Source: a virus
IMG/VR virus record: IMGVR_UViG_3300011335_000809
Span: 32,001 to 96,000 of that record
Direction: 5' to 3' (one strand)
DNA: 64,000 nt
Positions 17,425 to 48,317 of the stretch are shown one piece after another. Each line of letters begins with the position of its first letter. Position 1 is the stretch's first letter. The notes below the pieces were generated by a model that did not search any database, was not told the origin of the DNA, and saw only the letters and a list, made by a program, of their open reading frames with translations. The translations under genes were made by a program, and so were the position numbers.

Positions 17425-17809
17425 TGGTGGAGATGGCGGGGAGTCGCACCCCGCGTCCATAAAAAATTATTACTGCCAGACTACACGTTTATATATTTTA
17501 AATTGTTTGGGGTAATAATAAAAAATATCTAAAAATATTACCCTTAAGATTTACCATTTTCTCAGCCATTTACGCAAATCAAATATTTGGCCCAGTCCAA
17601 TAATTTACACCCAATACAACTATCAGACTTCATTGTATTGAATGTGCAACAACTTAGGCTGCAAGGGCTACAACGTCATCATAAGAGAAGTCATAGCTAA
17701 CTACGTTATCTTCAGCAGTTAATTTTCAATAGAACTTTTAAAGAGGCCAACTATTATCCTCTACGTGCCTAACAATAGATATTTATCTATGTCGAATCTA
17801 CACATCCCC
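17425..17809 (-). ncRNA. ssrA: tmRNA; tag peptide AEDNVVSYDFSYDDVVALAA* (17654-17716)
   Basis: 5' GGGGATGTGTAGATTCGAC; 3' GCGGGGTGCGACTCCCCGCCATCTCCACCA; G3:U pair; tag ORF ends LAA-stop. Confidence 0.95.
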
Positions 17810-19177: not shown

Positions 19178-19251
19178 TGGAGCGGGTAGAGGGAATCGAA
19201 CCCTCACATCAACCTTGGCAAGGTCGAAGGCTACCACTACATCATACCCGC
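19178..19251 (-). tRNA. tRNA-Gly(GCC)
   Basis: Cloverleaf, loop TTGCCAA, CCA. Confidence 0.95.
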
Positions 19252-19303
19252 GATCTGAACATTAATATATAATCGAAACTAATCAACATACATTAATTTA
19301 AAA

Positions 19304-19378
19304 TGGTGGACCGTAAGAGAATCGAACTCTTCCCTAAAGCTTGCAAAGCTCCCGTGCTACCACTATCACTAACAGCCC
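19304..19378 (-). tRNA. tRNA-Ala(TGC)
   Basis: Loop TTTGCAA, G3:U70, CCA. Confidence 0.95.
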
Positions 19379-19673
19379 ATTTAAAAATCTTACACCAATA
19401 TATAGTGTTTGTCAAACTAAAAATCAAATTGTATGACTACGACTTGCGAATATACGAGGATTTCACTATACTTTGTTCCATATGTCTATCTCGTCAACTT
19501 CAGTCTCCTCTACCAGCTAATAGGTAGCGTGCTACAATTCTATACACAAATAGTCAAATCTAAAAATCAACCCTATCCTATCTGGATCAGATTCGTCCGG
19601 GTCAGACATACAGGGGTGTATCGTGTCCCTCACGCTGTTGGACGTTTCCACCCAACACGCACATTTACTAAAA

Positions 19674-19750
19674 TGGTCGGGATGACAGGACTTGCACCTG
19701 CAACTTCCTGACTCCAGATCAGGCCGTCTCCTAATTGACAATACACCCCG
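19674..19750 (-). tRNA. tRNA-Pro(TGG), atypical C33
   Basis: CCTGA-TCTGGAG-TCAGG anticodon arm, C1:G72, A73, CCA. Confidence 0.8.
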
Positions 19751-19754
19751 AAAA

Positions 19755-19862
19755 TGGTCAGCGTAGTGGGATTTTCACCTGTCATATAAACATCTCTTTC
19801 AAGCCACACTCATTGTTCCCGTTTCGTTGGGAAATGACTCTTTAATGTTGGTCTACACGCTG
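19755..19862 (-). ncRNA. tRNA-like RNA with aberrant anticodon/T region
   Basis: Acceptor CAGCGTG/TACGCTG-ACCA intact, interior expanded to about 108 nt. Confidence 0.55.
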
Positions 19863-19871
19863 ATTATAAAT

Positions 19872-19945
19872 TGGTTGGGGATGATGGAATCGAACCACCA
19901 CAAGCAGATTCAAAGTCTGCCGCACTACCATTATGCAAATCCCCA
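19872..19945 (-). tRNA. tRNA-Gln(TTG)
   Basis: GCAGA-CTTTGAA-TCTGC, CCA. Confidence 0.95.
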
Positions 19946-19951
19946 GTTAAA

Positions 19952-20839
19952 TTACTTTTCATAAAGATTGATAAAATCTTTTCCGTATTTTGATGTCACA
20001 TAATCAATATACATCTTAATTTTGTGTTTGTCAATCACATTTAATTTAAATGGAAAAGAATTTATTTTTGCTTTATTTTTATTATCTAAATAACCTTTTA
20101 TTTCAAAATATTCATTTGTTGATTCAAGAATAAAGTCTGGATAAAAATTATAATTGTTATTATTGAACTTATAGGGGAATCCCTCAGTATTTCTTTTAAA
20201 TTTTATATTATGTTCTAAATTGAAAATTACCCACGCCAATTCCCAACTGCTATTACAATAATAACCTTTATACCATCCTTGTTTACCTCTTCCGCCTTTT
20301 TCACGATAACCTCCTCGTTTACCTTTCAAAAGTCCGTTTACTTTTACATATGTATTTCTACAAATTTGAGAACAATATATCTGTTTTGATTTTTCTGTTT
20401 TTAAAAAATTGTAATTACAATGTGGACATAATATAGATTTACGTTTTTTTACTCTAATCTGTTTTTTTGCTAATTCAGATAATCTTTTTTTGCCTTCTAT
20501 GTCCCATTTTTTGTGACCTCCAAACTTTTGGTTTTCAATAGATGCACATTTTGTAGAACAAAATTTATTATTTCTTCTAGAATATTCTAAATCAATATTG
20601 CAATATTCACACTTATTTGGATTTAGATTATATTTTTCTACTCTAAATAGTTTTAAACGTGGTGAAATTGTTTCTCCATTAAACTCTACAGAACATTTAT
20701 TAGAACAAAAATGATTGTTAGTTCTTTTTATTTCACTTTTATATTTTAAAAACTCAATATTACATTTTTTACAATTTACTAATATTTTACTCATACTAAT
20801 AAATAGTAATTTTGGAGCGTAAAATGAATTTTGAATCAA
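19952..20839 (-). CDS. free-standing PD-(D/E)xK endonuclease with Zn-finger repeats (putative homing endonuclease); start probably at 20794
   Basis: CxxC...FCSxxC repeats; SSWE...YPDF...EIKG; lies inside tRNA array. Confidence 0.75.
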   Translation of the reverse strand: MIQNSFYAPKLLFISMSKILVNCKKCNIEFLKYKSEIKRTNNHFCSNKCSVEFNGETISPRLKLFRVEKYNLNPNKCEYCNIDLEYSRRNNKFCSTKCASIENQKFGGHKKWDIEGKKRLSELAKKQIRVKKRKSILCPHCNYNFLKTEKSKQIYCSQICRNTYVKVNGLLKGKRGGYREKGGRGKQGWYKGYYCNSSWELAWVIFNLEHNIKFKRNTEGFPYKFNNNNYNFYPDFILESTNEYFEIKGYLDNKNKAKINSFPFKLNVIDKHKIKMYIDYVTSKYGKDFINLYEK

Positions 20840-20856
20840 AATATTTTGTTTGATTC

Positions 20857-20931
20857 TGGTGCAGTAGGAGAGAATTGAACTCTCATTTCAAGTTTGGAAG
20901 ACTCACGTAATAGCCATTATACCACTACTGC
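20857..20931 (-). tRNA. tRNA-Gly(TCC)
   Basis: Loop CTTCCAA, CCA. Confidence 0.92.
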
Positions 20932-21016
20932 ATTTTAATAAATTATTAGATGTTCAGTCATCAAATATTTGATGTGTACTATGAACCACGGACAGGTAAT
21001 CTAATTTCTCATAGCG

Positions 21017-21106
21017 CGGAGGCGAAGGGTGCTGCCCCCTCAGTGGCTTTTAGACCACGGCAGTTTAGCAAACTGCTGTAGAAACCTGACTATCTACGTC
21101 ACCTCC
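21017..21106 (-). tRNA. tRNA-Ser(GCT), no encoded CCA
   Basis: GCAGT-TTGCTAA-ACTGC, long variable arm, G73. Confidence 0.9.
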
Positions 21107-21194
21107 ATAAAATCTTTTGACAAACTCCGATTTCTTCAAGAGACGATATTATCAGTCTTCGGTTCCATTGTCAAGTGGAGTTGTATTAAAAGAG

Positions 21195-21278
21195 CGGAAG
21201 CAGTAGGACTCGCACCTACGAGGGTTTATGGCCCCAGGCGTTTTCAAGACGCTTTCCTCGACTAACCGGACTACTTCC
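21195..21278 (-). tRNA. tRNA-Ser(TGA), no encoded CCA
   Basis: Loop CTTGAAA, long variable arm, G73. Confidence 0.9.
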
Positions 21279-21293
21279 ATATAAATTAAAAAT

Positions 21294-21378
21294 TGGTGGG
21301 CATAGAGGGACTTGAACCCCCACGGATTTCTCCACGAGCTTCTAAAGCTCGAACGGCTGCCAATTACGTCATATGCCC
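21294..21378 (-). tRNA. tRNA-Leu(TAG)
   Basis: CGAGC-TTTAGAA-GCTCG, variable arm, CCA. Confidence 0.95.
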
Positions 21379-21385
21379 AATAAAA

Positions 21386-21461
21386 TGGTCGGCTCGGTGC
21401 GACTCGAACGCACAATATCTTGTACCCAAAACAAGCGGAATAGCCATTATCCTACGAACCG
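21386..21461 (-). tRNA. tRNA-Pro(TGG)
   Basis: CTTGT-TTTGGGT-ACAAG, CCA. Confidence 0.93.
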
Positions 21462-21471
21462 ATATTAAAAA

Positions 21472-21547
21472 TGGTAGGTGGTATAGGATTTAAACCTATG
21501 ACATTTTGCGTGTAAAGCAAATGCTCTATCAACTGAGCTAACCACCC
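21472..21547 (-). tRNA. tRNA-Val(TAC)
   Basis: TTTGC-TTTACAC-GCAAA, CCA. Confidence 0.93.
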
Positions 21548-21577: not shown

Positions 21578-21672
21578 TTATCGCCAGATGGGTTCTGTAT
21601 TTCAGCATAACACCCAGTGACCGATCAAATGTTTTAACTTATGTTGGGGACATCAGATAGAGTTTCAACCCC
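21578..21672 (-). ncRNA. conserved tRNA-array 5' leader RNA motif, copy 1
   Basis: Shares GGTGTTATGCTGAAATACAGAACC core and flanks with 31613-31741, with compensatory stem changes. Confidence 0.7.
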
Positions 21673-21687
21673 GTTCGTTATATTTCT

Positions 21688-21715
21688 AATTTACCATACT
21701 TCGTCAAATTGTCAA
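21688..21715 (-). promoter_or_regulatory. sigma70-type promoter for tRNA array 1
   Basis: TTGACA-N16-TAAATT. Confidence 0.7.
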
Positions 21716-21726
21716 CCATTAAAATC

Positions 21727-21760
21727 AAAAACCCGTCATTCTTTTTAAAAGTGACGGGTT
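21727..21760 (-). terminator. attenuator terminator 1
   Basis: ACCCGTCA...TGACGGGT followed by U-rich tail; 5' arm can alternatively pair with 21776-21787. Confidence 0.85.
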
Positions 21761-21787
21761 GTATATTTTTAGCAAACAACCACTCAC

Positions 21788-21841
21788 TCAACTTCCGGAT
21801 GGGAGTTGACTGGCTTGACTAGGTTGTGAAATTAAATTCAT
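21788..21841 (-). CDS. leader peptide 1, MNLISQPSQASQLPSGS
   Basis: 17-codon ORF after late-promoter-like TATATATT, just upstream of antiterminator/terminator; composition matches tRNA array 1. Confidence 0.75.
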   Translation of the reverse strand: MNLISQPSQASQLPSGS

Positions 21842-21919
21842 ATTCGTACTAATATATAGTGTTTGAAATTATAAATCAACAAAATTATTTAATAATTTTC
21901 AAATAAACTTCATTAAATT

Positions 21920-22873
21920 TTAGGATACTTTCTCAAATCCCGTCATATTAATTACGTTCAGGTTTTGACCAATAATAGCCTCTACTTGAGTTTTTCTACT
22001 GAGTAACCAAGCAAATGATCCAACTTTATACCACGCGCCCAATAGTGCCAATTCACTACCTACCTGCACAAATATTGGATTTCCAGAATCACCACCTCTT
22101 TGTGTCTCATAATACGACTGTGATGTGCCAAATACTGAAGCTTCTACATCAGCAACTGCATCAATTAATCGGGTCATATCTCCAATTGAAACTTTTTTGT
22201 CTTGATTGAGGAACAAAACAGGTAACCGTAAAGTTATGAATTGGACCCCCATCACACTATTAATTTCAGTTTTGATGTATTGTTGCCAGTTGTCTGGTAA
22301 TACTGAATATATCTTCAGACTACTATCAATTGATTGATCAAGAGTTCCAATTGCAATATCACTTCCATCAATCTTGTCGATCTTGATGATGTTGTATTTG
22401 AAGGTCACATTGTTATCGTTAACAAAAAAGATTTCTGAATTTGGCAAATAAGGAACGTGTGCAGACAATAAGACATGTTTATTAGTAATAAGAGTTCCAC
22501 CTCCAACACCACCGAGGCCATTTATACCAGCTGCAGTGCCTGTCCATTTATAAGATATCACCCAAGAAGCAGAATTTCGAACCCAAGAAAAAGTAGATTG
22601 GATAAACGCACTGAATAAACTACGGTCTTTGCTGGTCGCCATCATTTTGATCAGTGTGGATTTGATATTAGATACCCAGTTAGTACGTACACTACCACTA
22701 CTACCACTACTACCACCTATACCGCTACTACCAACTGTTTTACTAGATATCACTTTTGGTAACAATGCATTAGATATAAGTTTAGTTACTACAGATGTTG
22801 ATTGAAGAATTATTGTTTTTAATGAGGAAGTGCCTATTCCGCTACTACCACTTGATCCACTTGTCGATGCCAT
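21920..22873 (-). CDS. trypsin-like serine protease
   Basis: LLSAH, DIAIG, GGDSGNP catalytic triad motifs. Confidence 0.85.
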   Translation of the reverse strand: MASTSGSSGSSGIGTSSLKTIILQSTSVVTKLISNALLPKVISSKTVGSSGIGGSSGSSGSVRTNWVSNIKSTLIKMMATSKDRSLFSAFIQSTFSWVRNSASWVISYKWTGTAAGINGLGGVGGGTLITNKHVLLSAHVPYLPNSEIFFVNDNNVTFKYNIIKIDKIDGSDIAIGTLDQSIDSSLKIYSVLPDNWQQYIKTEINSVMGVQFITLRLPVLFLNQDKKVSIGDMTRLIDAVADVEASVFGTSQSYYETQRGGDSGNPIFVQVGSELALLGAWYKVGSFAWLLSRKTQVEAIIGQNLNVINMTGFEKVS

Positions 22874-22964
22874 AAAATAAACCTTTCGTTAATTATAAAT
22901 AGGTCATAAAAATAAAAAACCCGCTTATTTCTAAGCGGGATTATATACACTATTTTAGTTTAGA

Positions 22965-23663
22965 TTAAAATGTCAATCTCAAACCGCCGGAATATACTAC
23001 ATCGCCACTAAGTTCACGGGTAGCCCAATTATATTTAGTAGCATTAAAATTGTTGTCATACCATCCAGCACTTGCAAATGGAGTCAATACACCAAATGAA
23101 GTTTCAAAAGGACGAGTCACTGACAACTTTGCATTTACAGCTGTATAGTCTTCTACCTTACCATATTCAACAGCAGGAGTTACAACAAATCCAAATGGAA
23201 GTTTTTGAGCACGTTCTGCGCCAATAAACACACCACTTTGTTTCAAGTCTACATCATAAAATCCACGAAGATATGGTGTTACAAACTTATTTGGCAAAGC
23301 CAATTTAACACCAAATTCAGTACTATTTGGAATACCAAAGTTACCTGCTTGGTGACGAGTTACAGTTGTATCCAATCGTGCGGAAAATACATCCTTCCAT
23401 ACGTTTACTTCCTTGCCAGCACCCAGCGTCCAATGCGACTGATCTAGATCACCATTAGCCAATAGAGTACCACCCAAGTATACATCTGCATACTTCAGAC
23501 TCTTTACAGCACCTACACCAACAAATGCTGCGCCTTCAGAACGAGATACACCATTGACGATGTATTGGTTGTTATACCCAGCTTCAACTGAGATGTTTGA
23601 GGTGTCGCCTGCAGATACAGCCAAAGCGGCCAATACTGACAATAATACTAATACTTTCTTCAT
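22965..23663 (-). CDS. outer-membrane beta-barrel protein (host-like)
   Basis: Signal peptide, amphipathic beta strands, C-terminal GGLRLTF. Confidence 0.75.
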   Translation of the reverse strand: MKKVLVLLSVLAALAVSAGDTSNISVEAGYNNQYIVNGVSRSEGAAFVGVGAVKSLKYADVYLGGTLLANGDLDQSHWTLGAGKEVNVWKDVFSARLDTTVTRHQAGNFGIPNSTEFGVKLALPNKFVTPYLRGFYDVDLKQSGVFIGAERAQKLPFGFVVTPAVEYGKVEDYTAVNAKLSVTRPFETSFGVLTPFASAGWYDNNFNATKYNWATRELSGDVVYSGGLRLTF

Positions 23664-23819
23664 ATTTAACTATCCTTTATTTTGTTTATTTATGTTTACT
23701 ACCCACGTTAAGAACAGCTTAACGTTTATTTTGAAAAGACACTAAAATGTACTTTTCAGAATAATTTTTTATCAACTAATATATAGTTTTTATAATCTTA
23801 TTATAACTAATTTATTTAG

Positions 23820-24140
23820 TCAAACAGATTTTACCTTCTTGAGACGCTTGTTCAAAATCTTATCTTTTTCAGGCAAATAAACGTAAGAAGCCTTTAAACT
23901 ACGTTTACTTTCACCCAAAATAGACAACGTTTCTTCGTGAACGTCTAATGTTTCTAGTATTGTGCTCTTTACAAATCTAAAACTATCAGTGCCTACAACA
24001 TCAATACAGATACCATATGATAGATCTCTATATTGAACATCTGTTGCACCATACTTTGTACACAATACATCCTTGATTTTAGCCTTCTTGTCATTACTAA
24101 AGACTAAATTCGCCATATCAATTTTACTTAGTTCATTCAT
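23820..24140 (-). CDS. hypothetical protein
   Basis: 106 aa ORF with upstream TTGACA promoter. Confidence 0.6.
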   Translation of the reverse strand: MNELSKIDMANLVFSNDKKAKIKDVLCTKYGATDVQYRDLSYGICIDVVGTDSFRFVKSTILETLDVHEETLSILGESKRSLKASYVYLPEKDKILNKRLKKVKSV

Positions 24141-24243
24141 ACTATACTTTTATTATACTTGTTAACGGTTGATTGTCAATAAAAAATAAAACGATTAATT
24201 TTTACATCAATCGTTTTACTCCATTTAAATTTAAATCTATTTT

Positions 24244-24657
24244 TTACTTCTTTTTAAGCTTACCCATAAGCTTTTTGAGTTTGTCAGGCTGATGTGCTTG
24301 TAACCATTTAAAATAATCTTCCTTCTCTCTACGTGAAAGCTCACTGTCTCTATAAAGACCAGCATACTTCTTTACAATATCTCTAAAAGGATCTCCACTT
24401 TCATTTGTCTTCTTAAGTCTATCTATCTTGGATTTCAACATTTTCTTATAATTATCCAAAGAACCATAATCTTTTGCTCTACTTGGATCTGGATTTTTTA
24501 ACAACTTTTCCAAGTCAGCAATATCTTTATTCTTATCATTTTCAGAAAGATGTGCGGTTAATTCATCACTTTCAACTTCAGCAGCATTATCAAAATCTTC
24601 GTTTAATACTTCTCTTGTCAAACTTTTAATTAACTTCTTTAAATCATTTTTAGTCAT
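24244..24657 (-). CDS. putative head-packaged protein
   Basis: MTKNDLKKLIKSLTREVLNE N-terminal motif; TATTTATA upstream. Confidence 0.6.
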   Translation of the reverse strand: MTKNDLKKLIKSLTREVLNEDFDNAAEVESDELTAHLSENDKNKDIADLEKLLKNPDPSRAKDYGSLDNYKKMLKSKIDRLKKTNESGDPFRDIVKKYAGLYRDSELSRREKEDYFKWLQAHQPDKLKKLMGKLKKK

Positions 24658-24692
24658 ATGTTATAAATATAAATATTATTAATTAGCTACAT

Positions 24693-24863
24693 TTATTTTT
24701 CTTTTATACTATCACTCCAACCATTTCTATGTTTAAACATCCAATCCACTAACGCGGTCTCAAATCCTATATCAGTCCCTCTTTTTTCACTCTCTATCCA
24801 TTTGTGTATTTCTATCTCATTTTTTAATTGAAGAAACTTTTGATAGAGATTTGATTCGTTCAT
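24693..24863 (-). CDS. small protein MNESNLYQKF...EIHKWIESEKRGTDIGFETALVDW (DUF4032-like; not in ORF track)
   Basis: 56 aa ORF translated by hand; TATTTAT upstream; HKW.ESEK.G.DIGF motif. Confidence 0.7.
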   Translation of the reverse strand: MNESNLYQKFLQLKNEIEIHKWIESEKRGTDIGFETALVDWMFKHRNGWSDSIKEK

Positions 24864-24882
24864 ACACAAATAAATAGTATGA

Positions 24883-25353
24883 TTATTTAAGCGGTATATA
24901 CAAATCTCCTGTTAATCCTTTTTGAGTTAAATAATTAGCATCGCTAATCGCTAACGGACTCTTAATATAACCATATTTTTTACTCAATATTTTACGTAGT
25001 TCGTTACCAGCTAATTGTATCAAATCTAATTGTTCTTGTCCACCACTATTTTTAATTTTACCAGCAAGTCCAAACGGTAACATACGTTCATATTGTTTAT
25101 ACAAATTAATTATATCATTATAATGCGGCAACTCCAAGACAGGCCCTTTTAACTTAGTAGTTATTATTTGTTTACCAAATCGTTTAGCTACTTCTAAATT
25201 ATCCGTATGATTTGCTCCCAATGTAGCCACTAACTTGTCACCTGGCTTGGTGCTGTTGATACCCAACCCAACATTACCATACGCAGGATTAACACCTCTA
25301 TACACAGTCAATCCACCTGATTCTTCTTTCAATAAATCTTTTAATAATATCAT
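24883..25353 (-). CDS. putative head-packaged ART-like protein (start revised to MILLKDLLKEE)
   Basis: VYRG...TDNLEVAKRFG; tracked start overlaps tRNA-Cys. Confidence 0.5.
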   Translation of the reverse strand: MILLKDLLKEESGGLTVYRGVNPAYGNVGLGINSTKPGDKLVATLGANHTDNLEVAKRFGKQIITTKLKGPVLELPHYNDIINLYKQYERMLPFGLAGKIKNSGGQEQLDLIQLAGNELRKILSKKYGYIKSPLAISDANYLTQKGLTGDLYIPLK

Positions 25354-25375
25354 ATAGTAATAAATATATAAAAAA

Positions 25376-25466
25376 TGGAGCACGATCAAGGTTACGCTCC
25401 TTGCATATGTACTTTCATACAACGATGTTTTGCAGACATCTCAGTTCTCTAGCTCCGTCATCGTGC
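25376..25466 (-). tRNA. tRNA-Cys(GCA) with long variable arm
   Basis: GATGT-CTGCAAA-ACATC, U73, CCA, TGTA-TGAAAG-TACA variable stem. Confidence 0.8.
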
Positions 25467-25496
25467 TTTAAAAATGGAACCTATATAGGCATTAAA

Positions 25497-26300
25497 TCAT
25501 TCAGTATCATTTGTACCAAAAATACGCTTCCAAATTCCTATTCTTTTAGGTTTTACTTCGGATTTTTCTTCTTTAGGTTGATTATCTTTGTCCAACTTAA
25601 TGTGAACAGTTCGATTAGACATCCGCATCAATACCTCTGCACCTTTTGGCCACTCTCCCAATTTGTTCTTAAATTCATATCCATCTTTTTTCAGATTTAC
25701 TCTCAAATTTTGAGTCAAAAGAGCATTTTCTTTCTTCAACTCTTCTATGATCTTTTCATACTCTACTATCTTGTTCTTCAAAAAATCTCGTTCCTTTGTA
25801 AGCAATTCAATCTTAGATACAAGCTCATTTTGATCTTTATCAGTCTTTGCAACTTTAAGTTCATCACTCAAATCTACAATCTCTTTGGTCATACTAACAA
25901 GCGTATTGCGCAACGACTTTAAATCAGATTCAAGTGCAGATTTTTCTTGTGTCAAATCTTTGATCTTAACATCTTTTTCATCAGATGATACTTTCAACTG
26001 TTCAGTAATACTATTTAATTGAGTCATATTAGTATACAATATACTCAACTTATTATCATAACTCTTCAATAATACAGATAACTCCGTATTCTTTTGATTT
26101 AAATTGGTAATCAATAAACTTTGATTTACAACAATCTCTGTCTGGTTAACAACTTTCTTAGTTAACGCTTTATTATCTATATTCAATGAACTAAATAATG
26201 TATATAATCCAAAAGTTATTAATACAATTACAGCAATTATAACATATAATATCTTTTTATTAGTAACCGAAAATGTTTGGGGAGCGTTTGTAGATTCCAT
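25497..26300 (-). CDS. membrane-anchored coiled-coil protein
   Basis: N-terminal TM helix, long heptad repeats. Confidence 0.7.
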   Translation of the reverse strand: MESTNAPQTFSVTNKKILYVIIAVIVLITFGLYTLFSSLNIDNKALTKKVVNQTEIVVNQSLLITNLNQKNTELSVLLKSYDNKLSILYTNMTQLNSITEQLKVSSDEKDVKIKDLTQEKSALESDLKSLRNTLVSMTKEIVDLSDELKVAKTDKDQNELVSKIELLTKERDFLKNKIVEYEKIIEELKKENALLTQNLRVNLKKDGYEFKNKLGEWPKGAEVLMRMSNRTVHIKLDKDNQPKEEKSEVKPKRIGIWKRIFGTNDTE

Positions 26301-26366
26301 AAATTTATTTTATTATATATATAATCCACTGACATTTAAATATTTTTTTAAAATATAATATCAAAG

Positions 26367-26846
26367 TTACCAAGCCCTACATGACCAATATCTCGCTTTA
26401 GTACGTGGACCAGGATTATCACAATTGTGTCTTGCTCTAAAATTTTTTCTACGTGCTGGATTATTCTTTTTTATGGCCATTCTTTTACCTTTAGCTGAAG
26501 ATCCACCAAATCCAAAATTTACCTTAACCACTTTTCCGTTGGGATTTTTAACGTATACTTTAGATTTCTTAACATCACCTTGCATTGGTTTACCAAGGAT
26601 CACTTTACGACCATGATATTCTGCTTCACATAATGGTTGATTATATTCTCGCATGAATTGAACAAATTCTTTTACATCTCGTTCACTTTCAACATCATAT
26701 TCTTCTATATTGTCTTCATCTACAAAACCTTCTTTTTTAACACAGTTTGGTACCATTCTTCCGCCTTTTTCTTTCATACCAATTTGTTTATAAGAGTCCC
26801 AACACGCCTCTTCAATCTCATTTAAAAGTTCTTTTAACTTAATCAT
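26367..26846 (-). CDS. conserved phage protein (ARYWSC family), putative head-packaged
   Basis: MIKLKELLNE start; CWDSYKQIG..VPNCV; RARHNCD...KARYWSCRAW. Confidence 0.75.
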   Translation of the reverse strand: MIKLKELLNEIEEACWDSYKQIGMKEKGGRMVPNCVKKEGFVDEDNIEEYDVESERDVKEFVQFMREYNQPLCEAEYHGRKVILGKPMQGDVKKSKVYVKNPNGKVVKVNFGFGGSSAKGKRMAIKKNNPARRKNFRARHNCDNPGPRTKARYWSCRAW

Positions 26847-26885
26847 ATCTATAAATATACAAATTAAAATAAAACGTTTTAAAAA

Positions 26886-27081
26886 TGGCGATAGAGTTGG
26901 GAATCAAACCCAAACCTCAAGTTTTATTACCTTACTGGAGTTTATCGACGTGACAATCATAAGAATAATACATCTAAAATATAGGTTATTCCATAGTCGT
27001 CGTTTACATTTACCCAAATAAATTTGGATCATCCCAGCTACAGCTAACCTCTGTAACGTGCTTTCATTACACTACTCTATC
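26886..27081 (-). ncRNA. tRNA-framed RNA with about 120-nt insertion in the anticodon arm
   Basis: Perfect acceptor GATAGAG/CTCTATC-GCCA, D arm and T arm. Confidence 0.7.
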
Positions 27082-27087
27082 ATAAAA

Positions 27088-27164
27088 TGGCGCACCCGGA
27101 GGGACTCTAACCCCCAACCTTTCCGGTAGAAACGGATGGCTCTATACAATTGAGCTACGAGTGC
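27088..27164 (-). tRNA. tRNA-Arg(TCT)
   Basis: Loop TTTCTAC, CCA. Confidence 0.92.
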
Positions 27165-27241
27165 GTTAAAATGGTTAGTAACTGTTCTCACCAGTGATCA
27201 CTGAGTAAAAGGAATTGAACCCAACAATTACTAACAAAAAA

Positions 27242-27319
27242 TGGTTGTCCCGATTGGATTTGAACCAACGACCTTTGTGTTATCAACACACTGCTCTAAA
27301 CCAACTGAGCTACGGGACA
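27242..27319 (-). tRNA. tRNA-Ile(GAT)
   Basis: Loop TTGATAA, CCA. Confidence 0.95.
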
Positions 27320-27336
27320 ATTGAAAAATAATAATT

Positions 27337-28221
27337 TTGGCGATATTAAACATTCTCGTTCATATTTATAATTGTATGAAGAATATAACACCCACAGATA
27401 AAATTGTCAACTTAAAAAGTAGAGATCCAATTGAACTTGAATGTTACGAATGTAAATCAACTTATCAACACGCAAAACATCGTTATTTATGTTATAAACT
27501 TAAAGGAAAATTATCAGGATGTTTTTGCACACAAAAGTGTGCTATGACATACAAAAGTAAATTAAAAAATATAAATACTAACTGTGAATATTGTAAAAAA
27601 GATATTACTAAAAGTTTGAATCAATATAAAAAATCTAAATTGCATTTTTGCTCAACTTCTTGTTCCGCAACACATTGGAATAAAATTCACCATCCTATTA
27701 GGATAACAAAATCAAAAAGAACGGTAAAACTACCTATATTATTAACTTGTACAAATTGTTTAAATCAACATTATAGAAAATATTATAAATCAAGTAAAAG
27801 TGGTACCAATTTTTGTACTAGATCTTGTCAATCAATTTATGCAAATAAGACTTGGAATAAGTCTTCTAGGTTTGGAATAAATAAAAGTCGTTGTGAAACT
27901 ATATTAAAAAATATTATTTTAAATGAATTTCCAAATTTACAAATTATTGAAAATGATAGAACTACAATTAAAGGCGGATTAGAAATAGATTTACACATAC
28001 CAAGCAAAAATGTTGCAATTGAATTAAATGGTCCCTGTCATTATATTCCTATATTTGGTACAAAAGAACTAGAAAAAACACAAAATAAAGATTTATTAAA
28101 AATTGAATATTGTCAAAATAATAACATTAAACTTTTCGTAGTTAATGTGATGGGATTAAAAAATCAAATACAAACATTAACTGATGTATTTAATACTACA
28201 CTAAAATCACATTTAGTGTGA
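27337..28221 (+). CDS. Zn-finger endonuclease of the very-short-patch/DUF559-like PD-(D/E)xK type; start probably at 27376
   Basis: FCSxxC repeats; LEIDLHIP..AIELNGPCHY...DLLK; antisense insertion in tRNA array. Confidence 0.75.
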   Translation: MAILNILVHIYNCMKNITPTDKIVNLKSRDPIELECYECKSTYQHAKHRYLCYKLKGKLSGCFCTQKCAMTYKSKLKNINTNCEYCKKDITKSLNQYKKSKLHFCSTSCSATHWNKIHHPIRITKSKRTVKLPILLTCTNCLNQHYRKYYKSSKSGTNFCTRSCQSIYANKTWNKSSRFGINKSRCETILKNIILNEFPNLQIIENDRTTIKGGLEIDLHIPSKNVAIELNGPCHYIPIFGTKELEKTQNKDLLKIEYCQNNNIKLFVVNVMGLKNQIQTLTDVFNTTLKSHLV

Positions 28222-28224
28222 AAG

Positions 28225-28296
28225 CCCTCCATACGAGACTCGCACTCGTTACTACATCGTGACAGGATGTTATGATAACTCATTCAACAATGGAAG
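28225..28296 (-). tRNA. tRNA-Asp(GTC), no encoded CCA
   Basis: ACATC-CTGTCAC-GATGT, G73. Confidence 0.85.
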
Positions 28297-28460
28297 AAAA
28301 ATAAATTGGTGCTGTGCTCTCCACGCCGTCTCTGTGTTTTACCGAATGTACCGGTCGGCAGTCACTTATGGGGTCAGTTACCCATTACTAAATTGGCAGT
28401 TAGTTTAATGTGTCTTTACAGAAAAGATTTAACTACTAACTGTTCAGTGTTAGCTGAAGA

Positions 28461-28538
28461 TGGTGGATGCGGTGGGATTTGAACCCACAACCTTTCGGGT
28501 AAGAGCCGAATACTCTGATCCAGTTGAGTTACACATCC
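28461..28538 (-). tRNA. tRNA-Lys(CTT)
   Basis: TTCGG-CTCTTAC-CCGAA, CCA. Confidence 0.93.
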
Positions 28539-28765
28539 ATAAAAAATTGTATCTAATATTGTCAACGAACTATAATCATCTTACCACACTTTATTCTTCC
28601 GTCAACAACTTTCTTAAAAAATATTCTGAACAAATCAACTTTATTTGAGTGGTAGCTGCACCCACTCTCCGTATTCCCAAATTAACCGTCTGGCCACATT
28701 CAAGGGCTTTCACTTGGATAGTTGATACCGGAGTATAGTGTTGTCTTCACCTAGTTCAGAAAAAA

Positions 28766-28883
28766 TGGTGGGCTACGACTGGACTTTCACCAGTAAACGA
28801 TACAACCTTTCACTCAGGAACATACCCTCCTTCGGTTATATCAGCGGAGTCATCGCCGTGTCTTATATTTCCACCACACGCCC
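28766..28883 (-). ncRNA. tRNA-framed RNA with expanded anticodon arm
   Basis: GGGC.../GCCC-ACCA ends, D stem GTG/CAC, T arm ACTGG-TGAAAGT-CCAGT. Confidence 0.6.
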
Positions 28884-29154
28884 ATAAAAAAATCTTAATG
28901 TCGCTCACGTACTGCGACTCTCACGGCCTCATAATGCGATGTGCGGGTGGCCGTTGTGCATTCAAACAAATCTACCTCGCCTACTTTTTACGATATTGAA
29001 CTGATTTAGCGACTGTTGTACCTGTTCGGCCCTTCCACCGACTCACGTTTTTTATGGTTGCCCATCGCATTGTTATACAACAGTTTTATTTTCAGCGTTT
29101 ACGTATATCCTTAGTTATCTTGATATGTTTCGTATATACACCAATTAAGAAAAA

Positions 29155-29230
29155 TGGTCCCAGTTGTTGGTTCCGCCCCAACCTCTATTCGTCTTCAGCG
29201 AATCGCTTTCACTAGGTTAGCTTAACTGGG
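29155..29230 (-). tRNA. tRNA-Phe(GAA)
   Basis: ATTCG-CTGAAGA-CGAAT, CCA. Confidence 0.88.
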
Positions 29231-29330
29231 ATTATAAATTAAATTGACAAGTCAAAGGAATCGAACCTTTTCGGCACAGCATCACTGCACCTTTACCACG
29301 CCCTGCGCACTAGCACCTGTCAAAATCACG

Positions 29331-29477
29331 ATGTATGGTTGGATTCGAACCAACGGCTACTTTTACAACCATTAACATATAATTAATGGAATTTTTATTT
29401 ATTACAACCTAACATAAGATTTTTACGGGCTTACCCCATAGTTAGGTACTCTGCTCTGCCAACTGAGCTACATACAA
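29331..29477 (-). ncRNA. tRNA-framed RNA with about 75-nt insertion
   Basis: Canonical D arm GCTCAGTTGGCAGAGC and T arm GTTGG-TTCGAAT-CCAAC; TGTATG/CATACA acceptor. Confidence 0.65.
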
Positions 29478-29486
29478 TGTTTAAAA

Positions 29487-29572
29487 TGGTGGGGTATGTA
29501 GGTAATGCGCCTACCGAGCCTTTCAGCGCCAGATTTACAGTCTGGACCATCTCTTTAATGGTATAATACCCC
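29487..29572 (-). tRNA. tRNA-Tyr(GTA)
   Basis: CCAGA-CTGTAAA-TCTGG, variable arm, CCA. Confidence 0.92.
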
Positions 29573-29703
29573 GAAAAATTTAACGTCATATGTTTGTTTC
29601 ACCATATGACGGTGACTGAGGTTCTTCTTTCACCGTTACGTTCTAGTTATCCTCACCTATGCACAGGTAGAACGGCATTAGTCACTTCAGAAGACTTATA
29701 AAA

Positions 29704-29779
29704 TGGCTCCAAGAGAGGGCAACGATCCCCCAACCTTTCGGGTAACAACCGAATGCTCTACCAATTGAGCTATCTTGGA
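29704..29779 (-). tRNA. tRNA-Asn(GTT)
   Basis: TTCGG-TTGTTAC-CCGAA, CCA. Confidence 0.93.
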
Positions 29780-29894
29780 ATTAAAAATTAAAAATGTTTA
29801 CTGGATTTCAACGAACGTTCCATCTACTAATCATAACCTCGTCAGATTATAACATTCAATGTCTATCAGTGTCAATACATTACTTACTACTTCA

Positions 29895-29968
29895 ACTATT
29901 GATTCAGATTCGAACTGAATTACTCCCGCTTATTCGTGCGGTTGTTTTACCAATTAAACTACGTTCGT
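29895..29968 (-). pseudogene. degenerate tRNA (D and T arms intact, acceptor unpaired)
   Basis: GTTTAATTGGTAAAAC and TTCAG-TTCGAAT-CTGAA; 8-nt anticodon loop. Confidence 0.55.
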
Positions 29969-29995
29969 TGCCTTCACCTAATGTATTTGAAAAAA

Positions 29996-30070
29996 TGGCA
30001 AAGTGGGTGGGTAACGCTCCCACATAAAGCAGTTTTGGAGACTGCTGCATTTCTTGTCTGCCACCACCTT
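29996..30070 (-). tRNA. tRNA-Trp(CCA)
   Basis: GCAGT-CTCCAAA-ACTGC, G73, CCA. Confidence 0.9.
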
Positions 30071-30129
30071 GTTAAAATGGTATCTCCACCGTTAATATTT
30101 CAGTGGCCGTACCTGTTACTCTCTGTAAA

Positions 30130-31200
30130 TTACGAAATTAATGTTGTTGATTCAGATTTTTTCTTTGCTTCTCTAACAGAGACATAATTGATGGTATTTT
30201 CAATTGAAATACCCACTTGTTCCGAAAGACGCAATCCACGATAATATTTTGTAGGAATTCCAACATACTCACTCATAGCTATTTCTTTACGTGTATCCTT
30301 GATAAATTTCATATTTTGAATTGGATACAAATTGTTATATCCAATTGAAGTTAGAATTCCATTACCAAATAAGTTCATATGATAATCCGTAATTACATTG
30401 TAATATTTAACTTCTTCCATCACTACACTCTTTTTTATCAAGATTATTTCTTCACCTTTTACATTAAATGTAATAGTGCCAATCGGTGTATCACTTGTCA
30501 TCGGATAAGTAAATTTACCAGCCTGTTTATTAAAAATACGATGTTGTACAATTGTCTTTAAATAAGAACCATCACTAAATTCCAATAGATTGTATTTGGT
30601 TGTTACTTCTGGCTGCTTTATATACAAAGGTTTTGCCGTATCAAACTTCGCTTCGTCAAAATTCCACACAATAATATCGTCGATATAATCAATGTCTTCA
30701 ATTGCTTTGGTTGTACCATCTGACAATGATACCAAAGTGCCTTCTGCTAAACACACAGAAACATATATCGATATATCTGTACCATATGCTGTTCCATTAA
30801 CATTTGTTGCAAATGCTCTAATATAGACTAGACCATTTGTTGGGCTTATGTTCTGATTGCTACACGAAAATGATCCAATTGAAGCCGTAGGATCCACATA
30901 AGCGGAATCTGTTGGAAGTGTTGGGTTTGGAGAATTGCTTGCTACGAATCCTCTAGATAATATCGGTGAATTTCCATCAGATACTACTGTTCCTACGGCG
31001 CTAAAGTCGTAAAAAGCGCCGCCACTAGCACTATCTGTGGTCACGACTGGCAGTAGCGCCTGTAACGCCGATTCTTCTTGTTGTGCACCACCTGCAATTT
31101 GTTCTTCATATCCTCGCATCATTTTGGAATAATTTTGCATTATTTCGTGTAAGGGTAACTTTTCTTTGTTCTGTTGATAATAAGTCTGCCAATGTATCAT
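30130..31200 (-). CDS. FN3-like plus Hint-domain protein
   Basis: YIRAFATNVNGTAYG; CLAEGTLVSLSDG...YYNVITDYHMNLFGNGILTS. Confidence 0.7.
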   Translation of the reverse strand: MIHWQTYYQQNKEKLPLHEIMQNYSKMMRGYEEQIAGGAQQEESALQALLPVVTTDSASGGAFYDFSAVGTVVSDGNSPILSRGFVASNSPNPTLPTDSAYVDPTASIGSFSCSNQNISPTNGLVYIRAFATNVNGTAYGTDISIYVSVCLAEGTLVSLSDGTTKAIEDIDYIDDIIVWNFDEAKFDTAKPLYIKQPEVTTKYNLLEFSDGSYLKTIVQHRIFNKQAGKFTYPMTSDTPIGTITFNVKGEEIILIKKSVVMEEVKYYNVITDYHMNLFGNGILTSIGYNNLYPIQNMKFIKDTRKEIAMSEYVGIPTKYYRGLRLSEQVGISIENTINYVSVREAKKKSESTTLIS

Positions 31201-31230
31201 ACATATATATATCCACCAACAATACTAAAA

Positions 31231-31305
31231 TGGTAGCCTATGCCGGTGCTGCCCCGGCTACTCTTGGATGAAAGCCAAGTGACTTAGCTGGTTGTCGAAT
31301 AGGCC
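31231..31305 (-). tRNA. tRNA-Glu(TTC)
   Basis: CTTGG-CTTTCAT-CCAAG, CCA. Confidence 0.9.
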
Positions 31306-31312
31306 ATTAAAT

Positions 31313-31390
31313 TGGTGCTTCAGTGAGGATTCGAACCCCAAACTCAATGTCCGTAGCATTGCGTGATATATCCATTTTCACCACTGAAGC
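31313..31390 (-). tRNA. tRNA-Arg(ACG)
   Basis: CAATG-CTACGGA-CATTG, CCA. Confidence 0.93.
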
Positions 31391-31396
31391 ATAAAT

Positions 31397-31472
31397 TGGG
31401 GTGATATACGAGTGCTGCCCTCGTTCCGTGAGTTTCACAAACTCAAATGCTAACTGTTACACCAATATCACC
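31397..31472 (-). tRNA. tRNA-His(GTG)
   Basis: TGAGT-TTGTGAA-ACTCA, G-1:C73, CCA. Confidence 0.92.
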
Positions 31473-31484
31473 ATTACTATAAAT

Positions 31485-31560
31485 TGGAGCCGAAGACAGG
31501 ACTTGAACCTGCAACCTGAACTTTACAAAAGTCCTGCTCTGCCAATTGAGCTACTTCGGC
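31485..31560 (-). tRNA. tRNA-Thr(TGT)
   Basis: Loop TTTGTAA, CCA. Confidence 0.95.
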
Positions 31561-31612
31561 GGTCTAAATTTTCTTTGCTTATTTACTTATAACAATAACC
31601 TCAGTTATGTTA

Positions 31613-31741
31613 TTATCGCCCTATAGGTTCTGTATTTCAGCATAACACCTACGGACCAATCAATTGATTTTCCCAGTTCTCACCTTATCATCGGTCTTTC
31701 CGACTCACTGGCGGAGGCTCAACAGATGGAGTTTCAAGCCC
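31613..31741 (-). ncRNA. conserved tRNA-array 5' leader RNA motif, copy 2
   Basis: Homologous to 21578-21672, with an inserted hairpin. Confidence 0.7.
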
Positions 31742-31758: not shown

Positions 31759-31876
31759 AGTCTATCATAACTTTCGTCATTGTCAACCGACTTTTAAAAT
31801 TTCTTTTTCATCATCCAATGAACTACTACCTTCGTTCACTGTTTAACTACTTTACCACACCTTCAAAGAACGTCAA
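31759..31876 (-). promoter_or_regulatory. two tandem sigma70-type promoters for tRNA array 2
   Basis: TTGACA-N16-TAGACT (31759-31786) and TTGACG-N16-TAAAGT (31849-31876). Confidence 0.7.
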
Positions 31877-31886
31877 CCACAAAAAT

Positions 31887-31917
31887 AAAAAAACCGTCAC
31901 TTTTTAGTGTGACGGTT
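31887..31917 (-). terminator. attenuator terminator 2
   Basis: AACCGTCAC-loop-GTGACGGTT plus U tract; 5' arm can alternatively pair with 31953-31966. Confidence 0.85.
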
Positions 31918-31948: not shown

Positions 31949-32026
31949 CTATACAATATCACCGCCAACACATTCACAATTCGTAAATGTATCCCAACGT
32001 TTAATATGTGTATACTGTACTCTCAT
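31949..32026 (-). CDS. leader peptide 2, MRVQYTHIKRWDTFTNCECVGGDIV
   Basis: 25-codon ORF after TATATATT; contains all 12 amino acids of tRNA array 2; last codons form the antiterminator strand. Confidence 0.8.
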   Translation of the reverse strand: MRVQYTHIKRWDTFTNCECVGGDIV

Positions 32027-46958: not shown

Positions 46959-48317
46959 TTAAGCAATACGAACACTATAAGTCAAATCACCATCATTAAG
47001 ACATTCCAAGTTATTAAGCTTAGACTGTACACGTTTACAAGCATCTTCCTCAATTGTACCAGCAGCAAACATAACCTTCTGTATACACTTAGTCTTACCC
47101 TCAGCACGATGAATACGTCCAAGTGCCTGAAGAAGATTAATAGCACTGTAACTAGGACTGATGATAGCACCCCGAGCAAAATTACCATTCAAATCGTGTA
47201 AACTAACACCAGCATTACCAGCAGCCAAATTAGCAATCATAATTCGCTTAACATCACTCTGAAACAATTCAATGTCCTTCTGTCTAACTTTATCAGATTG
47301 TCCCCCAACAATCCTAGCAATCTTACCCTCAAACTTCCGGTTCTTAGCCAATTGTTTCTCAATAGCCTCTACAGTATCAGTGAAATTCACAAACACCACA
47401 GGACTGATACCCTCATCATACCAATCTTCAATCATTTCAACCATAGTGGGTACCTTCAACAATTCAGCCATACGACGAGCTTTAGTCATAATAGCAAAGT
47501 GATGTTGACTATAATTGACACTGGATTCCTCCAAAGCAGCCAATTCAGACTCCATCTGAAGATATACCCGATTGATTTTATCGGTATTGGTACCCATATC
47601 AAAACATTCAGCCATCACGTGATTGTCAGGAAAGATCTTGTCAAACATCTTTCGGGTCATACGGCTACTAACCTTATACAGATTAAATAGCTTATCGTGA
47701 ATGTTAGACATAGCCTCTACAGTCTTTTGACTCTGTAGATCAATTTGAAATCCACCATATCGTCCAACATAAGCACCACTATCAGTGATAAACTGACGAT
47801 AGCTAGTGAGATTGTGAAGAGTAGTAGCAAAACCAAACGCTTTCATCTCCAATGGATTGGTAGCAGCACTAGCACTAAGCAACAATGACTTGTAACCATC
47901 CATCTTCAACTTAATAAGAAAATCACTGTTCTTGCTGGTACTAGACTTACACTTATGTACTTCATCTAGAATCACAAGACTATTCTTGGGGAAGTTAATA
48001 GTATAATCACTAGGACCATTATCTTTACCATCTTTAAATGATAAATGTTCAGTGTTACCCCGAATCAATTTCTCATAGTTAATCAAACAATGAGCCTTAA
48101 TACCAAAATAACTCAAGACCGTGGTCCAAGCAGGTATCATAATCTTGGGACACACAATAACCACTGGACTATTAAGATTCTTAGCAATCCAAGCAGCCAC
48201 ATAAGTCTTGCCAGTACCAGTCTCACTCTGATCACAAGCAACACCATTGATATACAAACTGTTAAGCATATTAACAGCGTGCTCCCGTTGGGGAGGAAGT
48301 AGAAGTTCAACGTTCAT
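46959..48317 (-). CDS. SF2 (SNF2-like) helicase
   Basis: TGTGKT, DEVH, SASA, AGVSLHD, QALGRIHR. Confidence 0.9.
   Translation of the reverse strand: MNVELLLPPQREHAVNMLNSLYINGVACDQSETGTGKTYVAAWIAKNLNSPVVIVCPKIMIPAWTTVLSYFGIKAHCLINYEKLIRGNTEHLSFKDGKDNGPSDYTINFPKNSLVILDEVHKCKSSTSKNSDFLIKLKMDGYKSLLLSASAATNPLEMKAFGFATTLHNLTSYRQFITDSGAYVGRYGGFQIDLQSQKTVEAMSNIHDKLFNLYKVSSRMTRKMFDKIFPDNHVMAECFDMGTNTDKINRVYLQMESELAALEESSVNYSQHHFAIMTKARRMAELLKVPTMVEMIEDWYDEGISPVVFVNFTDTVEAIEKQLAKNRKFEGKIARIVGGQSDKVRQKDIELFQSDVKRIMIANLAAGNAGVSLHDLNGNFARGAIISPSYSAINLLQALGRIHRAEGKTKCIQKVMFAAGTIEEDACKRVQSKLNNLECLNDGDLTYSVRIA

Follow-up and report, generated by a model that had tools for sequence, protein, structure and literature searches.

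Giant phages carry dozens of tRNAs, and the expression of their tRNA arrays is essentially unstudied. What stands between the promoter and the first tRNA of such an array, and what might it do there? We investigated this question in a window of 64,000 nucleotides (nt), which covers positions 32,001 to 96,000 of the IMG/VR virus record IMGVR_UViG_3300011335_000809 (115,569 bases; CheckV completeness 34%). ARAGORN identified 16 tRNAs in the window, all on the minus strand and grouped in two arrays (19178-21547 and 27088-31560). The initial annotation of this DNA had placed a structured RNA element at the head of both arrays, between a sigma70-type promoter and the first tRNA, and the coordinates, the minus strand and the same-strand tRNAs were verified for both copies. 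The two copies and the features that flank them are the following:

21578-21672, minus strand: copy A of the element (type A), 95 nt, comprising the predicted pseudoknot, a small P2, P3 and a GAUAA tail (sequence and alignment A2; 98.5 bits with covariance model R1).
31590-31741, minus strand: copy B of the element (type B), 152 nt including the predicted hairpin P4 (alignment A4 and pair counts; 95.6 bits with R1).
21472-21547, minus strand: tRNA-Val(UAC), the first tRNA of array 1, 30 nt past copy A.
31485-31560, minus strand: tRNA-Thr(UGU), the first tRNA of array 2, 29 nt past P4.
21688-21715, minus strand: array 1 promoter, TTGACA-N14-TGn-TAAATT (TTGACA at 21715-21710, TG at 21696-21695, TAAATT at 21693-21688).
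31759-31786, minus strand: proximal promoter of array 2, TTGACA-N14-TGa-TAGACT.
31849-31876, minus strand: second, upstream promoter of array 2, ~90 nt before the proximal one; the same tandem pair is present in the related genome G003.

The gap between promoter and element is 15-17 nt for both copies, and copy A starts at about +10 relative to the array 1 promoter. The promoter hexamers are conserved in relatives, and the spacers are variable. Copies A and B are 77% identical in a pairwise alignment, from which we recovered the shared sequence blocks listed initially and the compensatory swap UGGGU/ACCCA versus UAGGU/ACCUA. A 24-mer common to both copies occurs exactly twice in the 115,569-base record (reversed control, 0), and a search with covariance model R1 returned exactly two sites, copies A and B. 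Copy B had been drawn with its 3' limit at 31613, which lies 52 nt from tRNA-Thr; inclusion of the covarying hairpin P4 moved this limit to 31590.

We collected homologous loci with an exact 22-mer scan, scanned viral contigs three more times with degenerate patterns and metagenome contigs once, and confirmed the loci with R1. This yielded >140 loci with ~45 distinct sequences in viral and metagenome contigs, most of which come from lake or other freshwater samples and belong mostly to uncultured giant phages of 200-300 kb. Among the carriers are two complete genomes, of 295,831 bases and of 202,704 bases (the latter with terminal repeats), and a near-complete one of 303,564 bases (89% complete). 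A scan of 185,579 prokaryote genomes returned only two short contigs, evidently misbinned phage; a match in a Bryobacterales genome was rejected as chance (12 bits, within an open reading frame [ORF]). Two 14-mer scans returned almost nothing but chance matches, and a helicase-based search for relatives found close kin only. The helicase of the window (46959-48317) is 54-65% identical in genomes G003, G004 and G005 and undetectable in G001 and G002, and all five carry the RNA with an almost unchanged core despite this divergence or absence. The complete 202-kb phage, in which no helicase homologue was detectable, still carries the element.

The homologues were sorted by architecture. Type A is ~94 nt long and has a small P2 hairpin, type C is 85 nt long and lacks P2, and type B has a core of 112-130 nt, a large P2 and the additional 3' hairpin P4. 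Type D comprises loci L261, L281, L307, L313 and L387, the B2 lineage comprises L310, L311 and L327, and the L365 lineage lacks P2.

The proposal of a covarying structured RNA was borne out by comparative alignments and covariance models; counts were taken partly from dedicated tools and partly from reading the alignments. The element is predicted to fold as an H-type pseudoknot adjoining a long hairpin, P3, and this fold is well supported by compensatory changes. Its predicted parts are the following:

21672-21669, minus strand: 5' strand of stem S1 in copy A, GGGG (this and the next three parts from pair counts and RNAalifold).
21668-21661, minus strand: loop L1 in copy A, UUGAAACU.
21660-21650, minus strand: 5' strand of stem S2 in copy A, CUAUCUGAUGU.
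21649-21646, minus strand: 3' strand of S1 in copy A, CCCC.
21636-21645, minus strand: P2 in copy A, a hairpin of three base pairs (bp), AAC/GUU, with the 4-nt loop AUAA (read from alignment A2).
21622-21632, minus strand: 3' strand of S2 in copy A, ACAUUUGAUCG, the partner of 21660-21650 (pair counts at 31-90 and 34-87).
21583-21621, minus strand: P3 in copy A, with the internal loop GUUA (21611-21608) opposite GA (21595-21594) and a variable apical loop (covariation).
31741-31738 with 31718-31715, minus strand: S1 in copy B (this and the next three parts from alignment A4).
31729-31719 with 31667-31657, minus strand: S2 in copy B.
31711-31673, minus strand: P2 in copy B.
31656-31618, minus strand: P3 in copy B.
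31590-31612, minus strand: P4, in type B only, a 9-bp hairpin with a bulged U and a UGAG loop (alignment A4).

S1 joins alignment columns 1-4 with 35-38 (GGGN/NCCC), with the variants GGGG/CCCC, GGGC/GCCC, GGCU/AGCC and GGUU/AACC, and a swap is found at pair 4-35 of the pseudoknot model. L1 is invariant in types A to C. S2 joins CYAUCUGNUGN with NCANUUGAUYG over 11 positions, two of them pyrimidine-pyrimidine oppositions, and directly abuts P3; L3 consists of P2 and/or an A-rich linker. In the pseudoknot model, 93.2% of the alignment cells pair, versus 31-45% when the partners were slid, and its covariation score of 0.247 was reached by none of 500 shuffles. Pair 31-90 is U-A in 17 sequences, G-C in 12 and A-U in 7, and pair 34-87 is U-A in 21 and A-U in 17. 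The opposed pyrimidines 14/96 are always U/C (types A and C) or C/U (types B and D); the B2 lineage is B-like except that it has U/C here, and L365 shows a further S2 combination, GUUGU with ACAAU. In type D, P1 (the outer 5' stem) is extended and S2 is reduced to CCAUC(A) with (U)GAUUGG, the remainder being replaced by a local stem that itself covaries (AAGCA/UGCUU versus AAGUA/UACUU).

The hairpins covary as well. P3 has ~17 bp, an invariant 4×2 internal loop, G(U/A)UA opposite GA, and an apical loop that varies in sequence and length. Its pair 101-137 is A-U in 19 sequences and C-G in 17, pair 113-126 is G-C in 32 and C-G in 6, pairs 103-134 and 104-133 also covary, and the divergent lineages L307 and L310 have U-A in place of C-G at pair 100-138. 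In relatives of copy A the P2 loop is GAAA or GUAA, and in L243 the P2 stem is UC/GA instead. In type B, the outer and inner stems of P2 both covary, the inner one often being capped by GAAA or GUAA, and P4 shows both-sided changes at all nine pairs with 100% of its cells paired. Over the whole of alignment A4, 95% of the cells are paired and 20 pairs show both-sided changes. The G.U pairs 30-91, 99-139 and 102-135, which are invariant or frequent, are possible solely in minus-strand RNA.

Some details of the initial annotation gave way in this comparison. RNAalifold and the pair counts showed that the 5' half is one strand of the pseudoknot and not a plain hairpin. Our own first model, a plain P1 hairpin with a large conserved loop, paired 89% of the cells and was rejected, its inner pairs 5-8/31-34 failing in about half of the sequences; RNAalifold instead matched the P1 "loop" to the segment immediately 5' of P3, and retention of the outer P1 stem alongside this pairing gave the pseudoknot. 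A loop had been called invariant, which holds between copies A and B; across the family its apical part, GCUGAAAUAC, varies in sequence and length, and only GGUG(U/A)UAU...AGAACC of that region is conserved. Because this apical part is variable, the second UGAAA motif, which had been likened to a T-loop, is not conserved across the family, and the loop-E and T-loop readings are not supported as originally worded. Consensus motifs of the K-turn, the sarcin-ricin/loop-E and the 11-nt receptor, compared with the GUUA/GA loop by reading the sequence, did not fit.

Four further pairings were rejected. L307, L310 and L313 disrupt a "P3-outer" helix of UGAUYG with CGAUAA; pairing of YAUC with the 3' GAUR tail meets seven C.A mismatches in alignment A2; in type D, the conserved loop could pair with an upstream GAGUU, but L307 does not preserve this; and CUCUAUC, although complementary to the D-arm of tRNA-Val, loses the match with other first tRNAs.

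Is the element tied to tRNA arrays elsewhere? The covariance-model search of relatives confirmed this link in every homologue found: among the >140 loci, all real matches with enough flank lie upstream of same-strand tRNAs. The element is followed by tRNA-Val or tRNA-Pro after 17-30 nt in types A and C, by tRNA-Thr after 46-51 nt in type B and by tRNA-Trp after 25 nt in L365. For type D, L307 is 5 nt from a tRNA-like RNA (read by eye) and L387 is 11 nt from tRNA-Lys, and the gap to the first called tRNA is 75 nt in L281, ~165 nt in L292 and 273 nt in L313. A conserved promoter stands immediately upstream of the element in types A, B and D. Where an array head bears the element it bears a single copy, which makes two in this record, two in each ~300-kb genome and one in the 202-kb genome, where it heads a 20-kb stretch of dispersed tRNAs.

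Several tRNA genes of these arrays are unusual in themselves. The tRNA-like RNA of L307 (235-315, minus strand) has the acceptor GGGUCCG...CGGACCC-A-CCA and no ARAGORN call. A conserved tRNA with an enlarged anticodon loop (ARAGORN "ctct") occupies the second, third or fourth position of type B arrays in relatives (L004:2645-2720, L085, L246, L251 and L276), and related phages carry a tRNA with a CUA anticodon, of the amber-suppressor type and labelled Pyl by ARAGORN (L243:661-736 and L255:3788-3863). In the window, a tRNA-His(GUG)-like gene (31400-31471, minus strand; Rfam, 37 bits) has no ARAGORN call and a T-arm that looks non-canonical.

Does the element belong to a described RNA family? 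Covariance-model searches of Rfam 15 left both copies without a match, whether at the gathering threshold or with E as high as 10, and the loci of type D and G003 without one for E as high as 1. Copy A with its flanks had no blastn match among 50,697 GenBank phage records. We conclude that the element is a new RNA family, which matches no described one and is a member of none of the systems compared below.

Transcription of array 1 was examined in RNA libraries. Parts of the array were found in 23 libraries from ~19 studies, and in four freshwater or lake metatranscriptome studies contigs run continuously across tRNA-Val, the element, the promoter and an upstream hairpin, which is consistent with transcription. 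In one RNA library, the contig bearing the element has the highest depth in the region. Both array heads have such a hairpin:

21721-21760, minus strand: terminator-like hairpin with a U-run, just upstream of the array 1 promoter (read from the sequence).
31882-31917, minus strand: terminator-like hairpin upstream of the array 2 promoters.

A single adapter-bearing contig ends at 21804, upstream of the array 1 hairpin. A 17-codon ORF lies upstream of the array 1 promoter (21788-21841, minus strand), with a promoter-like site at ~21880-21850, and RNA contigs cross this region.

What, then, would such an RNA do at the head of a tRNA array? We lean toward a cis-acting leader module that binds some factor and works on its own transcript, a reading to which we give slightly less than an even chance. 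A conserved pseudoknot with invariant unpaired bases, present once per head of a non-coding operon, suggests a cis-acting, factor-binding leader as the simplest explanation, and conserved structures between a promoter and the genes that follow are usually cis-acting. The element would be a phage-specific RNA domain of ~85-150 nt, serving two conserved tRNA operons as their 5' leader (5' external transcribed spacer). Transcription by host-type sigma70 RNA polymerase probably begins ~9-13 nt before the element, and the nascent RNA is predicted to fold into the pseudoknot and P3, whose invariant unpaired nucleotides may form a docking surface for a host or phage factor. Acting in cis, the element would either keep the polymerase processive against pausing and termination or set the maturation of the precursor; its release would follow through RNase P cleavage at the first tRNA.

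The genes downstream are tRNAs, which makes translational control impossible; a classic termination switch is unlikely as well, since the element has no terminator behind it. With these set aside, elongation control (anti-pausing or antitermination) or maturation control is left. Elongation control, a tentative proposal in its own right, is slightly favored over processing control, which we regard as rather unlikely. The distance from element to first tRNA, which ranges from 5 nt to 1.4 kb, counts against a purely local processing signal.

Several observations weigh against the cis-acting leader. Type C sits behind a tRNA-Val and a conserved 53-codon ORF, not a promoter; L365 sits behind ORF-like sequence, again not a promoter; and in G003 two ORFs (~1.4 kb) lie between the element and tRNA-Thr. 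The complete genome G004 has a third array on the opposite strand (277.3-281 kb) that gave no R1 match even unfiltered and has an unstructured 22-nt leader; its promoter is of the same type, TTGACT-N14-TGgTAAATT (L434, G004:276300-277450). No intrinsic terminator was predicted inside either array of the window, and there is therefore no evident target for antitermination. The tether on which put-type elements depend would be lost once RNase P cleaves at the first tRNA. The single-sequence folding energies of the two copies are unremarkable (z-scores 0.42 and -0.37), so that the case for the fold is a comparative one. Neither transcript ends nor abundance can be read from the RNA contigs, and DNA carry-over is possible.

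The 53-codon ORF itself (L288:2901-3062, plus strand; also in L019) lies between tRNA-Val and the type C element. It is probably translated, because the differences between L288 and L019 fall mostly at third codon positions.

Antitermination of the put or nut kind had been among the functions suggested initially, and HK022 putL/putR is the nearest system by position and copy pattern. Like the element, put RNAs are phage-encoded, present in two paralogous copies per genome and small, with conserved unpaired bases in a folded RNA, and each copy is transcribed soon after an early host-type promoter and heads a long operon. A put-type antiterminator RNA binds the beta-prime subunit of RNA polymerase and acts solely in cis. 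In contrast to the pseudoknot and single long hairpin predicted here, however, put consists of two adjacent stem-loops without a pseudoknot, and it precedes known terminators, whereas the arrays have no predicted internal ones. The rrn and lambda nut (boxA/boxB) leaders and EAR resemble the element as leaders of long, largely untranslated or special operons, and act on elongating polymerase. Unlike the nut leaders, neither element leader contains a boxA-like sequence: the boxA consensus (GCUCUUUAACAA-like, up to two mismatches) matched the window at 3 sites versus 9.1 expected, none of them in either leader. EAR we take to be among the Rfam families, none of which the element matches. The absence of internal terminators and of boxA, an architecture other than that of put, the third array without an element and the placements away from promoters have weakened antitermination.

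These exceptions fit well with a second reading, a strong rival although less probable than the cis-acting leader. Here the element would be a stable small RNA that acts in trans: encoded as the leading "gene" of the tRNA operon and freed by tRNA processing, it would bind or sequester a host or phage factor. Transcription initiation would define its 5' end, RNase P or RNase E cutting ahead of the first tRNA would define its 3' end, and P4 would stabilize the latter in type B; P4 is a stable hairpin without a U-run. A small RNA would tolerate positions inside a transcript or 1.4 kb from a tRNA and would not be needed by every array, as in G004. Its invariant single-stranded loops look like a binding surface, and the read depth on the element contig in one library points the same way. 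T4 stable RNAs C and D (species 1 and 2) and E. coli 3'ETS-leuZ, a sponge, offer precedents, being non-tRNA RNAs that are co-transcribed with tRNAs and freed by tRNA-processing enzymes. They are likened to the element by context alone and, unlike it, are located inside or 3' of the cluster. Further precedents are GOLLD and ROOL, structured phage noncoding RNAs that often adjoin tRNA islands (10.1101/2024.12.08.627333). The element shares this setting in phages, and by context GOLLD/ROOL and the stable RNAs of the T4 tRNA cluster are its nearest counterparts. In contrast to the 85-152 nt of the element, GOLLD and ROOL have roughly ≥500 nt (GOLLD often >800), form multimeric cages and are not specific to array heads, and their Rfam models do not match it. 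The element has no terminator of its own, and contigs cannot reveal a discrete RNA species. As a seed test, the complement of L1 was only mildly enriched elsewhere in the window (3 sites versus 0.76 expected), which is unconvincing. Two paralogues have been kept at two different array heads across deep divergence, for which a cis role is the simpler explanation.

A riboswitch-like sensor, in which a pseudoknot aptamer for a metabolite, an alarmone or a tRNA would tune array expression, is improbable. Being a compact H-type pseudoknot just past a promoter, with one invariant loop and with internal loops that are conserved, the element does resemble small aptamers such as those of the preQ1, SAM-II and fluoride riboswitches, and the array heads, with their tandem promoters and upstream terminator-like hairpins, look heavily regulated. 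Unlike those riboswitches, however, the element precedes tRNAs and has neither an Rfam riboswitch match nor an expression platform, since no terminator or ribosome-binding site lies between it and the tRNA. The only alternative pairing found is the UGAUYG/CGAUAA helix that is broken at three loci.

We judge it very improbable that the element is a new self-cleaving ribozyme acting to trim the array precursor at its 5' end: a small, pseudoknotted and highly conserved RNA adjoining RNAs that need processing would suit it, but no known class matched at E up to 10, no cleavage site could be deduced, and RNase P already removes tRNA leaders. A DNA-level site (operator or recombination site) or a syntenic remnant without RNA function is hardly credible, for although all members come from related phages with syntenic arrays, the compensatory changes keep RNA pairs, including strand-specific G.U pairs and a long-range helix that a DNA palindrome does not need, and the element is also present in a phage that does not share the helicase.

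Other features of the arrays and their surroundings were recorded. Array 2 contains a perfect-consensus promoter sequence, TTGACA-18-TATAAT (29846-29875, minus strand). A 295-amino-acid ORF inside array 1 (19952-20839, minus strand) matches an HNH endonuclease PHROG, and this stretch is skipped or replaced in RNA-library contigs of relatives, as expected of a mobile insertion. Downstream of array 1 lies a phage transfer-messenger RNA (17425-17809, minus strand; Rfam, 106 bits), and those of relatives encode tag peptides ending in ALAA or VAA.

The element is widespread in lake metagenomes, and its conservation is about equal to that of the tRNAs, while phage proteins diverge to ~55% identity. 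To the large GOLLD and ROOL RNAs, which likewise cluster with phage tRNAs, it is a counterpart that is small and tractable, and at 85-150 nt it is easily synthesized, offering a handle on elongation control by a dedicated RNA, on processing or on host-factor sequestration in tRNA operons. It might even prove, although we hold this to be rather unlikely, the first RNA device dedicated to tRNA arrays, either as a phage pseudoknot that needs no protein of its own to reprogram host transcription or processing on tRNA super-operons or as a new aptamer or ribozyme class. If so, giant phages would have a direct means of setting the output of their own tRNA set.

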